64,000 nucleotides of DNA, from the sequence record PQ569687.1, one strand, 5' to 3'. Made by a program: the position numbers and the translations under genes. Numbering within the stretch: position 1 is the stretch's first letter; each line of letters opens with the position of its first letter. Source of the DNA: Klebsiella phage vB_Kpn_K54_rec1. The notes below the pieces were generated by a model, which was not told the origin of the DNA, searched no databases, and saw only the letters and a list, made by a program, of their open reading frames with translations. Shown here piece by piece: positions 60,953 through 64,000 of this stretch.

Positions 60953-61188
60953 GCAGACTTGCAAAACTAAACAGAAGAAAGAAGATGTTGAAAGAAAAGC
61001 AGAAAAACATCACGGCTACTTTCCAAGTATGCCGAGAGGCTATGAAGGCAAATCGGATAACACCTTCGCAGAGACAGTTGATCCGTGATATTCTTCGTCC
61101 TGTTCTCCACGACCTTGAAGGTGAAGTTCGTGATGTTACACTTCATATTCAAGAGGAACTTGTAAAAAGATATCAGGAGAATACATGA
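60949..61188 (+). CDS. hypothetical protein
   Basis: ATGA coupling. 79 aa. Confidence 0.45.
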   Translation: MSRLAKLNRRKKMLKEKQKNITATFQVCREAMKANRITPSQRQLIRDILRPVLHDLEGEVRDVTLHIQEELVKRYQENT

Positions 61189-61778
61189 TTGACCATGTTA
61201 CGTCAGACACTCACTGGTGGCATACCAACATCCTTGGTTTCCCATCGTGTGATAAATTCCGTAAGAATCTGTACGGTCAAAAAGAAGACCGTGAAAGTCT
61301 GTATGCCATGAATGCAGGTATGATTGAAATCTGGAATAAGCACGTCAAACCAGATGATGTCGTAGCACACCTTGGTGACTTCGTGATCGCTTACGGTCGC
61401 TACGTTGAGCCACGCACTCGTGATATTCTGGAAAAGATCAACGGAAAGATCATTCTTATTGGTGGTAACCATGACAACCGAGATACGAAACGTATCTTCC
61501 GTGAATTCGGTCATGAAGTTGTTGATTATAAAGAGATTAACTTCAGCACTGGAAAAGAGAAGGTGCATGTGTGTATGTCTCACTATCCGTTCGCATCGTG
61601 GAACAAAGCACACCACGGGTCAGTTATGTTGCACGGGCATAGCCACGGCTCCTATACAGCCCCCGGTGGACGTATTCTCGATGTAGGTTGGGATGTTCAT
61701 GGTCGTCCTCTGACGATGCGTGAGGCCGTCCTGATGTGCCTCAAAAAACCAATCTACACTGCTGACCACGGAGAATAA
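61185..61778 (+). CDS. calcineurin-like metallophosphoesterase (lambda-phosphatase/Pnkp-phosphatase type)
   Basis: Signature blocks DTHWWH, GDF, GGNHDNRD, GHSHG spaced as in the PPP/MPP fold. Confidence 0.75.
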   Translation: MIDHVTSDTHWWHTNILGFPSCDKFRKNLYGQKEDRESLYAMNAGMIEIWNKHVKPDDVVAHLGDFVIAYGRYVEPRTRDILEKINGKIILIGGNHDNRDTKRIFREFGHEVVDYKEINFSTGKEKVHVCMSHYPFASWNKAHHGSVMLHGHSHGSYTAPGGRILDVGWDVHGRPLTMREAVLMCLKKPIYTADHGE

Positions 61779-61779
61779 G

Positions 61780-62136
61780 ATGCATAACAAAGAACGAAAT
61801 TTCATAGCACGTAACACGGCGAAGTCTTTCTTCGCTACTATTCACATTGCCGGGGATTATGCTCAGGCCAAGAATTTGTGTCGCCATTGGGTTATGCAAG
61901 GTGCTTGTGTGCAGATTGCTCCATGCATCTATGTTTACACAGGTGGTGTCGAAGATGGTATGACTGTGCGGTTGATGCAGTATCCACGTTTCCAGCGTCA
62001 GGAGCATGAGATATTATCAATGGCTGTCGAACTTGGAAAATATCTTGCTCAGGAGATGTGCCAGATAAGCTTCAGTATCGAAACTCCTTATAATACAACA
62101 TATTATCAGGCGGAAGGTTATGAAAAAAGATCTTGA
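61780..62136 (+). CDS. hypothetical protein
   Basis: 118 aa. Confidence 0.45.
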   Translation: MHNKERNFIARNTAKSFFATIHIAGDYAQAKNLCRHWVMQGACVQIAPCIYVYTGGVEDGMTVRLMQYPRFQRQEHEILSMAVELGKYLAQEMCQISFSIETPYNTTYYQAEGYEKRS

Positions 62137-62317
62137 TCTTATCCATAACGTGGCCTTTTTGATTAGCGAGCTTGAAGAATATGTTGACGAACTAGACCTG
62201 AGCATCTATGATGACTACAGTGAAATGAAATCAGCACAAAAAGAAGTGCTCAAACTATTGAAAAATCTCAGACGAAGGAGAGAACATGAAATTCAACGTA
62301 GACGATTTGGTCGATAA
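62120..62317 (+). CDS. small hypothetical protein
   Basis: 65 aa, overlapping neighbours. Confidence 0.35.
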   Translation: MKKDLDLIHNVAFLISELEEYVDELDLSIYDDYSEMKSAQKEVLKLLKNLRRRREHEIQRRRFGR

Positions 62318-63263
62318 AAAACTGGTAACCAAAAAGACTTACACCGAAGGCCCGTTCGCGGGTCTGTCTGTGCTGAAGTATAAGAACAATGTGTTCTGGG
62401 ATAACCTGTGGCATACTGACCCACGACTGCTTGAGTGCCGTGGCATGGTTGTTGATGCAGATAACAACGTTGTTATCTGGCCTTTCACTAAGATTTTCAA
62501 CCGCTTCGAGAATGGAACTGACCTTTCGGCAGATAGGTTGGTCGATGCAGCTCGGAAAGTGAACGGATTCATGGCATCTGCTGGGGTATATAAAGGGCAA
62601 TTGGTGGTGTCAACAACAGGAACCCTTGAGTCAGAATTTGCAGTTATGGCTAAGAATCATATCATTTCCGAGTGCAATGATATTGAGCACTTTATCAAAT
62701 GGACTGCGAATGCAAAAGCAACGTTCCTATTCGAGATCTGCGATCCTTCTGATCCGCACATTATTGCGGAAGATGCGGGTGCTTACCTGATCGGTGTGCG
62801 TATCCAGAATCCTGACGGCACAAGCTTCATGTTGCCGGAAGGCGCTCTTGACGGTCTTGCAAATGTGACAAAGTTCAAGCGCCCAGTTGTTCATCAGATG
62901 ATTAAATTCTCTGATGTTGTTGAAATGTCCAAGAAATGTCAGCACGAAGGATATGTTGTTCGTGATCCAAACTATCCATTCAGTCTGCTCCTTAAAATCA
63001 AGTCACCACACTATCTCGCGAAGAAATTTCTAATGCGTGGAGGTGATAACAAGTGGGATATGATCTGGGATAACCCGAAAGAGGCCAAGAAGCGTATTGA
63101 CGAAGAGTATTACGAGTTGCTTGACCATATCCGCGAGTATTACTCTAAAGATGACTGGGCTGGGATGGATTCTCAAAAACGACGTCAGGTTGTTGAAGAT
63201 TACTTCGCTATCGAAGACATGTTTGGTCGTGGTAGTCGTTTTTATGTTGGGGTTCCAAAATGA
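62286..63263 (+). CDS. rnlA: RNA ligase 1 (T4 RnlA-like)
   Basis: DPRLLECRGMVVD aligns with T4 RnlA LPDALECRGIMFE. Candidate nucleotidyl lysine in KVNGFMAS. 325 aa. Confidence 0.6.
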   Translation: MKFNVDDLVDKKLVTKKTYTEGPFAGLSVLKYKNNVFWDNLWHTDPRLLECRGMVVDADNNVVIWPFTKIFNRFENGTDLSADRLVDAARKVNGFMASAGVYKGQLVVSTTGTLESEFAVMAKNHIISECNDIEHFIKWTANAKATFLFEICDPSDPHIIAEDAGAYLIGVRIQNPDGTSFMLPEGALDGLANVTKFKRPVVHQMIKFSDVVEMSKKCQHEGYVVRDPNYPFSLLLKIKSPHYLAKKFLMRGGDNKWDMIWDNPKEAKKRIDEEYYELLDHIREYYSKDDWAGMDSQKRRQVVEDYFAIEDMFGRGSRFYVGVPK

Positions 63264-63604
63264 TTATCTGGCTTGATGACCTGAGAGATCCAAAAGACTA
63301 CGGGTATCCTGATGCCTTGTGGTTCAAGACCTCTCAGAAATTTATGGACTTTCTGGACAACAGGTCAAAGTTCTATCGTTATGTCACAGAGTGGCATTTC
63401 GATAATGACCTTGGTGAAGAGTCAGAAATGGAGGGCTATGACTGCCTGTTGGCCTTGGAAGAGAAGCTTGTGTATGGAAAACTTCCTGTGCATGATGCTA
63501 AACTCTATGTCCATACGTCTAACCCTTCTGCGGCACAAAAGTTCATGCTTGCAAAAGAGAGCTTCTTGAAGTATCGTATCACGATCTTAAGAAACAATTA
63601 CTGA
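63260..63604 (+). CDS. hypothetical protein
   Basis: ATGA coupling with the RNA ligase. 114 aa. Confidence 0.45.
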   Translation: MIIWLDDLRDPKDYGYPDALWFKTSQKFMDFLDNRSKFYRYVTEWHFDNDLGEESEMEGYDCLLALEEKLVYGKLPVHDAKLYVHTSNPSAAQKFMLAKESFLKYRITILRNNY

Positions 63605-63613
63605 GGAGAAGAG

Positions 63614-64000
63614 ATGGAAAAGACTCTGATTATCCTGCGTGGTGTGTCTGGTGCTGGTAAGTCTACAGTTGCTGAAACAATCGCGGGTAAAGCATGGCCT
63701 GTATTTGAGGCCGATAAATACCATTATCGGGACGGGGTTTACGACTGGAAGCCTGAAAACATGGCTGTTGCTCATAAGTGGTGTCAAGAACAGGTACGTG
63801 AGGCTATGGTGTGCCGTATTGCAAAAATTATCGTATCCAACACTTCGACAACAGAGAAGGAACTAAAACCCTACATTGCCCTTGCTGATGAGCACGGATA
63901 CCAAGTTATTAGCTTGGTGGTCGAGAATAGGCATGGTAATGATTCTATTCACAATGTTCCGCAGGAAACTCGTGATGCTCAAGAGCTTCGTCTGCGTAAC
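63614..64000 (+). CDS. pnk: P-loop polynucleotide 5'-kinase-like protein, 3'-partial
   Basis: N-terminus LIILRGVSGAGKSTVAE resembles the T4 Pnk kinase start IILTIGCPGSGKSTWAR. Runs off the window end. Confidence 0.55.
   Translation, partial: MEKTLIILRGVSGAGKSTVAETIAGKAWPVFEADKYHYRDGVYDWKPENMAVAHKWCQEQVREAMVCRIAKIIVSNTSTTEKELKPYIALADEHGYQVISLVVENRHGNDSIHNVPQETRDAQELRLRN

Follow-up and report, generated by a model that had tools for sequence, protein, structure and literature searches.

A split set of candidate RNA-repair enzymes in Klebsiella phage vB_Kpn_K54_rec1 and its conservation across phage lineages

We describe a gene module in Klebsiella phage vB_Kpn_K54_rec1 that probably encodes a heal-and-seal RNA repair set divided among three separate small enzymes. 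The module occupies positions 61185-64000 of the stretch analyzed here (64,000 nt of record PQ569687.1, hereafter the window) and comprises a metallophosphoesterase (MPP), a short ATP-dependent RNA ligase of the T4 Rnl1 family and a stand-alone kinase of the Pnk type. A sequence-only reading of this DNA had placed these three open reading frames (ORFs) on the + strand and linked them to tRNA-centred evasion of host defence; strand and quoted MPP motifs agree with what we found, and each of the three has a Pfam match. The cleavage of tRNA is emerging as a common bacterial anti-phage strategy, exemplified by PrrC, RloC, PARIS, retrons, Cas13 and Schlafen-like nucleases. To our knowledge, the Pnkp/Rnl1 pair of T4 is the sole phage repair system proven at the bench. 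The module in vB_Kpn_K54_rec1 is real and its core interpretation is reasonable; it was also already the subject of a published prediction for this group of phages, and the families of its parts are known ones. Specifically, a sirtuin-linked RNA-repair system was predicted by Iyer, Burroughs, Anantharaman and Aravind (2022, Viruses 14:1977; PMC9503650), who named the phages Mydo and rV5; theirs is the one published account of the locus that we located. Beyond the text of it that was consulted, we report the trio of MPP, ligase and kinase as a conserved core, its frequent linkage to NARP1 genes for NAD+ reconstitution, and a neighbouring gene with an S-adenosylmethionine (SAM) lyase fold.

The ligase (62286-63263, + strand, 325 aa) matches Pfam RNA_lig_T4_1 at E=4.2e-14. 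A profile of nine homologues, searched against PDB sequences, retrieved T4 Rnl1 (2c5u) at E=2.8e-22 over T4 residues 33-299 of 374, with Rnl3-type enzymes as the next-best matches (E=0.005). The likeness to T4 RnlA had originally been drawn from an ECRGM segment, and this segment indeed aligns with the T4 protein (LLECRGM against ALECRGI). Motif I (K91-V-N-G94, aligned to T4 K99-E-D-G102) is invariant in sets of nine and of eight homologues. Motifs III (E150, in FEI), IV (E221-G222, in EGYVV) and V (K237-x-K239, in LKIKS) are likewise invariant and align to T4 E159, E227-G228 and K240/K242, as are the Rnl1-specific residues R52 (in ECRG), K69 and F71 (in TKIFN), the counterparts of T4 R54, K75 and F77. 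The latter three are reportedly the residues that Wang, Ho and Shuman listed in 2003 upstream of motif I, and mutagenesis in the Shuman laboratory is said to have found R54, K75, F77, K99/G102, E159, E227/G228 and K240/K242 of T4 Rnl1 essential. Judged by its sequence, the phage protein is a T4 Rnl1-family enzyme. Relatives of it occur in 608 GenBank phage records.

The kinase gene (63614-64000, + strand) runs off the end of the window after 129 codons. Its 3' end was checked in an identical record, where the protein has 134 aa; the five further codons, with a stop that would fall at 64018, add no C-terminal phosphatase domain. The protein thus consists of a kinase domain only, unlike T4 Pnkp and Clostridium thermocellum Pnkp (CthPnkp) with their fused 3'-phosphatase, so that the activities are truly split. 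It carries the P-loop GVSGAGKST and matches Pfam AAA_33 (E=1.7e-10). The best solved relative of its profile is Pnkp1 of the Pnkp1-Rnl-Hen1 complex (E=2e-5), followed by the CthPnkp kinase domain (E=4e-4, over full length) and T4 Pnk (E=5e-3); gluconokinases match around the P-loop only. An AlphaFold model built from 32 homologues reached a pLDDT of 92, and a fold search with it returned polynucleotide kinases as structural neighbours, in keeping with the earlier suggestion of a resemblance to the Pnk N-terminus. An identity as a nucleoside or deoxynucleoside monophosphate (NMP or dNMP) kinase, which that reading had named as the alternative, was rejected on the fold ranking, since the fold is nearer to polynucleotide kinases than to NMP, dNMP or small-molecule kinases. 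Within the P-loop (G10-V-S-G13-A-G15-K16-S17-T18), G15, K16 and T18 are invariant in the 32 homologues, at least 90% of which also keep G10 and G13. D34 is also invariant and aligns to CthPnkp D38 (T4 D35), the catalytic Asp after the P-loop helix.

The MPP (61185-61778, + strand, 197 aa), a binuclear member of the calcineurin superfamily, matches Pfam Metallophos at E=1.9e-6, over the gathering score, and phrog_547 at 4e-50. Its DTHWWH, GDF, GNHD and GHSHG motifs are all in place. The metal ligands D8-x-H10, G64-D65, G94-N95-H96-D97, H133 and G151-H152-x-H154 are invariant or nearly so among 11 homologues, D8 and H10 being absent from just one, which is truncated at its N-terminus. Searched against all PDB sequences (E<=1), the family profile found Aquifex aq_1665 (1xm7) at E=3e-19; the remaining matches were two GpdQ-like phosphohydrolases (0.03) and noise. 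aq_1665, the sole solved relative, is a structural-genomics protein without an assigned function. In NCBIfam, the MPP weakly matches YfcE and PdeM, under the cut-off. An assignment to the lambda-PPase/Clostridium Pnkp type, as proposed by the sequence-only reading, had to be rejected: neither phosphatase is among the profile matches, and by sequence the likeness holds at the superfamily level only. We infer that the MPP heals 3' ends carrying a 2',3'-cyclic phosphate or 3'-phosphate.

Gene fusions also tie the MPP to RNA sealing. In two protein clusters (P0146, P0147) from independent contigs, a homologue of the MPP forms a single protein with the domain of an Rnl2-type RNA ligase. One such fusion protein, of 524 aa, is encoded at 10733-12307 of locus L026 and is followed by an Rnl1-type ligase and then a kinase; the fusion recurs in the second cluster on three contigs. 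Locus L026 therefore encodes two RNA ligases, as does T4.

We examined how constant the association is by scanning IMG/VR for this ligase type, which yielded 76 ligase loci in 53 clusters (lineages) at 80% ligase identity. Of the 53 lineages, 47 have an MPP gene no more than 10 kb from the ligase, and in 45 the distance is 3 kb or less; a kinase gene is found within 10 kb in 45. Both partners occur within 10 kb in 43 lineages and within 3 kb in 36. Such co-occurrence of the same three families points to clustering beyond chance. Far from being an unusual combination, as had been supposed, MPP-ligase-kinase surrounds this type of ligase more often than any other arrangement does. The tight trios show five gene orders (with M for MPP, L for ligase, K for kinase and a prime for the opposite strand): MLK in 22, KLM in 10, LMK in two, LKM in one and M'K'L in one. 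The trio extends to unrelated genera at 35-48% identity, including Pakpunavirus PaoP5 (Pseudomonas), Thalassavirus Wyman (Vibrio) and Otagovirus phiPsa347 (Pseudomonas). By comparison, a gene for cREC (cyclic-phosphate processing Receiver-like) protein lies within 10 kb of the ligase in 10 of 53 lineages, and one for a sirtuin (Sir2) in 7 of 53. Given this difference, MPP-ligase-kinase is the persistent core, to which the rV5/Mydo supergroup has added cREC and Sir2. In the rV5-like phage FV3, the trio stays clustered though MPP and kinase are inverted relative to ligase-cREC-Sir2-MazG.

These patterns make it very improbable that the locus holds no functional module at all and that unrelated early genes became neighbours by chance. 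In such a case, the MPP might for example serve DNA repair as a nuclease like PdeM, partnered with the ATP-dependent DNA ligase close by; the kinase might phosphorylate nucleotides; and the RNA ligase might be retained for tail-fibre attachment like that of T4 gp63. The MPP does match the ligase-associated PdeM, at E=0.006 and far under the cut-off; 18 of 53 lineages have a DNA ligase gene no more than 10 kb from the RNA ligase; the database label of the ligase reads "RNA ligase and tail fiber protein attachment catalyst"; and the operon holds unrelated genes. Yet as a neighbour the DNA ligase is far less constant than the RNA ligase, the structural neighbours of the kinase are polynucleotide kinases, and the tail-fibre label has been carried over from T4 by name only. 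Nor do unlinked genes behave like a trio that persists through five gene orders and is joined by a fusion.

Under the reading that we favour, the Pnk-fold kinase would phosphorylate the 5'-OH end of a broken RNA, and the MPP would take off the 2',3'-cyclic phosphate or 3'-phosphate at the other end, possibly assisted by cREC, which may first open the cyclic phosphate. The Rnl1-type ligase would then adenylylate the 5'-phosphate and seal the break. By analogy to T4 Pnkp/Rnl1 acting against PrrC, the substrate is probably host or phage tRNA whose anticodon loop was cut by host abortive-infection nucleases, leaving 2',3'-cyclic-phosphate and 5'-OH ends, and its repair would counter this host defence. 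The module would thus form part of a damage-reversal island, together with 22 tRNA genes (46921-54919, - strand) and a NARP1-like NAD+ reconstitution pair. The array is consistent with a tRNA substrate. Its count of 22 comes from ARAGORN and corrects an earlier estimate of about 24-30; it lies ~6 kb from the module, with two NAD-salvage genes in between. Family profiles, catalytic motifs, conserved clustering, the MPP-ligase fusion, operon structure and the published prediction together incline us toward a split repair set.

Several observations weigh against this interpretation. In the short-ligase clade, the position of T4 Rnl1 Lys119, an essential residue of the T4 enzyme, is occupied by Thr111 (in VSTTGT); the longer T4-like homologues of loci L026 and L014 have Arg there. 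The ligase is also ~50 aa shorter than T4 Rnl1, and the difference falls in the C-terminal region, the source of tRNA specificity in the T4 enzyme. In the kinase, Tyr38, invariant in an eight-sequence alignment, stands at the position of T4 Pnk R38/CthPnkp R41, the Arg that contacts the acceptor nucleotide phosphate; the tyrosine may be another way of holding the acceptor (the kinase alignment leaves out the kinase of locus L026). The only structural relative of the MPP, aq_1665, has no known substrate, and the role of the MPP as 3'-end healer is drawn from gene context. Published biochemical or genetic work on the MPP, ligase, cREC or kinase was sought and not found. The operon is functionally mixed, including as it does the SAM-lyase-fold gene, and the presence of cREC and Sir2 in this phage suggests a different 3'-end route. 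Lastly, 22 of 53 lineages have both NARP1 genes no more than 10 kb from the ligase, as against a published prevalence of 4.3% among sequenced phages overall, a strong linkage among lineages that are non-independent samples. cREC genes also occur inside NARP1 operons (loci L050, L064 and L120), and given both facts the MPP and cREC could act on ADP-ribose phosphates instead.

The cREC gene of the window (63260-63604, + strand, 114 aa) matches Pfam PF20274 (cREC_REC) at E=2e-17, with 64 bits against a cut-off of 27. The acidic residues D6-D7, D48 and D50, which are Rec-like, and H85-x-x-N88-P89 are invariant in eight homologues from five phage groups. A profile search against PDB sequences gave no meaningful match and no solved relative. 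The cyclic-phosphodiesterase activity of the family is a prediction of the Aravind group (Iyer et al., 2021; Iyer et al., 2022). In the identical record, the genes past the window encode a 74-aa ORF, Sir2, an ATP-dependent DNA ligase, three small ORFs and a MazG-like pyrophosphohydrolase. The Sir2 (10349-11125 of locus L001, just past the window) matches Pfam SIR2, with GAGxS for NAD binding and the catalytic His in its aligned place; it has no tetrad of zinc-binding cysteines such as that of E. coli CobB. We found Sir2 homologues in 975 phage records, including many T5-like phages, as against 354 for cREC and 608 for the ligase.

From the linkage of such genes, Iyer et al. (2022) proposed that the sirtuin removes 2'-phosphates in the manner of KptA/Tpt1. 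In this NAD+-dependent route, which resembles that of Trl1/Tpt1, cREC would open the 2',3'-cyclic phosphate to a 2'-phosphate and 3'-OH, the kinase would phosphorylate the 5' end, and the ligase would leave a junction 2'-phosphate; Sir2, as the Tpt1/KptA analogue, would then remove it by ADP-ribosyl transfer from NAD+, and the MPP and MazG would clear by-products. The gene order ligase, cREC, kinase, 74-aa ORF, Sir2, with its members overlapping or abutting, fits this scheme, as do the linkage in the rV5-like FV3 and the Pfam-confirmed cREC and SIR2 domains, the latter with its NAD-binding motif and catalytic His. The neighbouring NARP1 genes could, moreover, rebuild the NAD+ that Sir2 uses. 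We nevertheless regard the route as rather unlikely. The trio persists without Sir2 and cREC in most lineages, as the census counts indicate, and in phi92-like phages Sir2 lies ~33 kb from cREC. Among solved structures, Trl1 enzymes are absent from the matches of the ligase profile, which include T4 Rnl1, and on this ground a Trl1-type identity was rejected. As far as we know, T4 Rnl1 needs no 2'-phosphate. Pfam found no 2H or KptA domain in the ORFs scanned at the locus, and no sirtuin is known to remove an RNA 2'-phosphate.

The second competing account starts from the NARP1 linkage. The window holds a NARP1-like pair on the - strand, a Namat-like gene at 56173-57849 and an Adps-like (PRPP-synthetase-like) gene at 57911-58711, identified from record annotation and tblastn; the assignment rests on gene-pair architecture after Osterman et al. 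(2024). The pair (56173-58711) lies across a divergent promoter from the module. In PaoP5, Wyman and phiPsa347 (loci L069, L070 and L071), the trio is succeeded, on its own strand, by genes like Adps and Namat; a Macro gene often joins them, and PaoP5 and Wyman have one (Adpp-like) beside the NARP1 pair. We found no mention of a linkage between the trio and NARP1 in the published accounts consulted; the text searched in Iyer et al. (2022; PMC9503650) does not mention the linkage of the ligase set to a NadV/PRS (NARP1) pair.

The MPP and/or cREC could accordingly be NAD-metabolite salvage enzymes that feed NARP1 and not RNA end-healers, although we judge this improbable. cREC would open ADP-ribose (ADPR) 1'',2''-cyclic phosphate, and the phosphate so produced, or the one on ADPR-1''-P, would be taken off by the MPP. 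This would supply ADPR to Adps and Namat, much as Adpp, a Macro-domain protein, does in NARP1-AP. The sealing of RNA would then fall to ligase and kinase as a pair of their own; an extreme form of this account has these two act on nicotinamide nucleotides. In 29 of 53 ligase lineages, one NARP1 gene or more (Adps-like or Namat-like) does lie within 10 kb. cREC stands directly upstream of Adps-Namat on the same strand in L050 (9828-12652), L064 (1191-3935) and L120 (cREC at +2822, Adps at +3216 and Namat at +4087 from the ligase), as if it were a NARP1 accessory comparable to the Macro phosphatase of NARP1-AP. In the phAPEC8-like contigs L021 and L025, cREC is followed by an MPP gene, with no RNA ligase, kinase or Sir2 nearby. 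ADPR-cyclic-phosphate is a documented decay product of the NARP1 intermediate ADPR-PP (Osterman et al., 2024), and phages are known to add a phosphatase, the Macro Adpp, to NARP1, which makes NARP1-AP (Osterman et al., 2026). On the other hand, the MPP gene lies within 3 kb of the RNA ligase in 45 of 53 lineages, oftener than NARP1 is present at all, and two clusters show it joined to the domain of an RNA ligase; many loci, besides, already have a Macro (Adpp-like) gene by NARP1 in addition to the MPP. Recently described NARP1-associated enzymes were tried as identities for the MPP and cREC and gave no match: Adpp, the phosphatase that counters aRES, is a Macro domain, RyDEP a RyR-domain glycosidase, and NARP3 consists of PnuC and NadR. 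On balance, a role in ADP-ribose-phosphate salvage is conceivable for cREC and, less probably, for the MPP.

A bolder version, to which we give correspondingly little credence, would join repair and NARP1 genes in one NAD+-coupled circuit. Sir2 would strip the 2'-phosphate from religated tRNA at the expense of NAD+, cREC and the MPP would turn the resulting ADP-ribose 1'',2''-cyclic phosphate into ADP-ribose, and Adps and Namat would rebuild NAD+ from it. In its radical form, the trio itself would act on nicotinamide or ADP-ribose nucleotides, the kinase making a 5'-phosphate to which the ligase would transfer AMP; if true, this would be a route of NAD+ reconstitution not described before.

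The wider distribution of cREC bears on its role as well. A scan of viral contigs with a single sequence gave close relatives only, and an alignment-based scan reached further. A Pfam census of 134 neighbours of the distant homologues showed no dominant RNA-repair partner, NARP1 genes and ArfA each appearing twice; the setting of cREC outside the rV5 supergroup is therefore not clearly RNA repair. In T5-like phages, a stand-alone cREC gene lies in or at the edge of the tRNA array (L012, Proteus phage PM135; L013, Pectobacterium phage DU_PP_V; L028, L029, L031 and L035), with the nearest tRNA gene 133-938 nt off and 22-25 tRNA genes per 20-kb locus. RNA ligase, kinase and MPP were not detected near these T5-like genes. 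The phAPEC8 record (L010, 7355-8193) shows no MPP match after cREC and has two short ORFs in its place; the MPP gene may have decayed there. The ArfA homologues, which add another translation-rescue function (alternative ribosome-rescue factor) to cREC neighbourhoods, lie up to three genes from a distant cREC, one at 8984-9232 of L027 and one at a further locus. Some 23 "Campylobacter phage" records of 137-146 kb (e.g., MG065676.1, MG065674.1 and MG065656.1) carry rV5- or phi92-like cREC genes with identity equal to that of E. coli phages; these records look mislabelled or derived from contaminating coliphages.

With regard to transcription, the rightward genes plausibly form one operon, because starts and stops overlap or nearly touch and no terminator-like site was found on the + strand from the promoter to 64000. 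The overlaps include 4 nt at 61185/61188, those at 62120/62136 and 62286/62317, and 4 nt at 63260/63263; the gaps are 1 nt at 61778/61780 and 9 nt at 63604/63614. A sigma70-like promoter (TTGACA-16-TAGAAT, 59908-59935, + strand, matching the consensus at 11 of 12 positions) appears to head this gene string, and its host type suggests early expression. A second sigma70-like promoter, also an 11/12 match, is predicted on the - strand at 59904-59876. Back to back, the two (59876-59935) divide a leftward block with the NARP1-like genes and tRNA array from the rightward block with the repair module. A hairpin with a 9-bp stem lies at 60358-60378, between the first two rightward ORFs. The description of the trio as three separate genes in a rightward operon is plausible, though the three are not contiguous: three ORFs intervene, encoding a 118-aa protein with a SAM-lyase-like fold, a 65-aa protein and cREC. 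These had been missed, and Sir2, DNA ligase and MazG, lying past the window end, were out of sight of the sequence-only reading. Searches of the window found no second RNA ligase (Rnl2), Macro gene or duplicate of a module gene.

The 118-aa ORF (61780-62136, + strand) was linked to SAM lyases by a fold search. Its BFVD neighbours are uncharacterised phage proteins, an annotated SAM hydrolase first appearing at rank 35, and its profile had no match among PDB sequences. A SAM-lyase function is thus tentative; the protein would probably serve a separate anti-defence function outside the repair chemistry. The 65-aa ORF (62120-62317, + strand; phrog_32298) overlaps both neighbours, has no Pfam match and is kept in some close relatives only.

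The region 59900-64000 is 100% identical to Klebsiella phages vB_Kpl_K54lambda1.1.1 and vB_Kpn_K54_rec2-6, and ~99% identical over 89% of its length to Klebsiella phage BIS47 and Proteus phage Mydo. All are myophages with genomes of ~143-147 kb. In the matching records, GenBank labels the MPP "phosphoesterase", the ligase "RNA ligase (and tail fiber protein attachment catalyst)" and the kinase "ATPase", with hypothetical proteins around them. The ligase departs from this near-identity. It shares only 70% identity with its counterpart in BIS47/Mydo-type relatives (L002/L015), which otherwise match at 99-100%, as against 86% with that of a more distant contig of 145,964 bp (L007/L072) and 73% with that of phi92. 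This divergence from near-identical relatives, with greater closeness to a distant contig, suggests a mosaic allele and a recombinational exchange limited to the ligase gene.

As a discovery, the module is modest, given that a prediction for this exact phage group is already published. It is best seen as a simpler, split version of T4 repair that is widespread among phages. The trio is the standard partner set of this ligase in phages of Klebsiella, Escherichia, Salmonella, Pseudomonas and Vibrio, several of them phage-therapy candidates, and if the repair function is true it would explain part of the host range on nuclease-armed strains. It would also provide first substrates for the aq_1665 phosphoesterase family and the cREC domain. 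The recurrent linkage of the trio to NARP1 suggests that phages bundle functions that restore what the host destroys, with tRNA supply, tRNA repair and NAD+ rebuilding in one early-expressed island.

Among known systems, T4 Pnkp (PseT) with Rnl1 (RnlA/gp63) shares the ligase family and the logic of healing the 5' end, healing the 3' end and sealing. The vB_Kpn_K54_rec1 set differs in its stand-alone 134-aa kinase without the HAD phosphatase and its separate MPP for the 3' end, in a ligase that ends ~50 aa sooner, in the Thr and Tyr at the positions of T4 Rnl1 K119 and Pnk R38, and in the extra partners cREC and downstream Sir2. The bacterial Pnkp/Hen1 and Pnkp1-Rnl-Hen1 systems (Clostridium thermocellum, Capnocytophaga gingivalis) likewise heal 3' ends with a calcineurin-superfamily, non-HAD enzyme. 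These systems, however, fuse kinase, phosphatase and ligase in one polypeptide and add the 2'-O-methyltransferase Hen1, whereas the phage has three genes and no Hen1; its MPP is aq_1665-like with no detectable match to Pnkp or lambda phosphatases, and its ligase is of the Rnl1 type. Fungal and plant Trl1 with Tpt1 (KptA) combines the same three activities of cyclic phosphodiesterase, 5'-kinase and ATP-dependent ligase, and would share an NAD+-consuming step if Sir2, in a hypothetical role, substitutes for Tpt1. The phage ligase, though, has no sequence match to Trl1 structures, and no 2H or Tpt1/KptA domain was found at the locus. The substrates of NARP1 and NARP1-AP (Osterman et al., 2024, 2026) are ADPR and nicotinamide rather than RNA, and neither the MPP, ligase, kinase nor cREC is a described NARP component. 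Closest of all is the type 2 sirtuin-centred neighbourhood of Escherichia phage V5 and Proteus phage Mydo given by Iyer et al. (2022), which is the same locus: in our phage, too, Sir2 is linked to a T4-like ligase, cREC, kinase and MazG, with Sir2 and MazG outside the window. Calcineurin-like domains can supply a phosphatase step according to Iyer et al. (2021) on jumbo phages. The 2022 account centres on Sir2 and calls the calcineurin-like phosphoesterase "occasional", whereas our census places the MPP in the persistent core.

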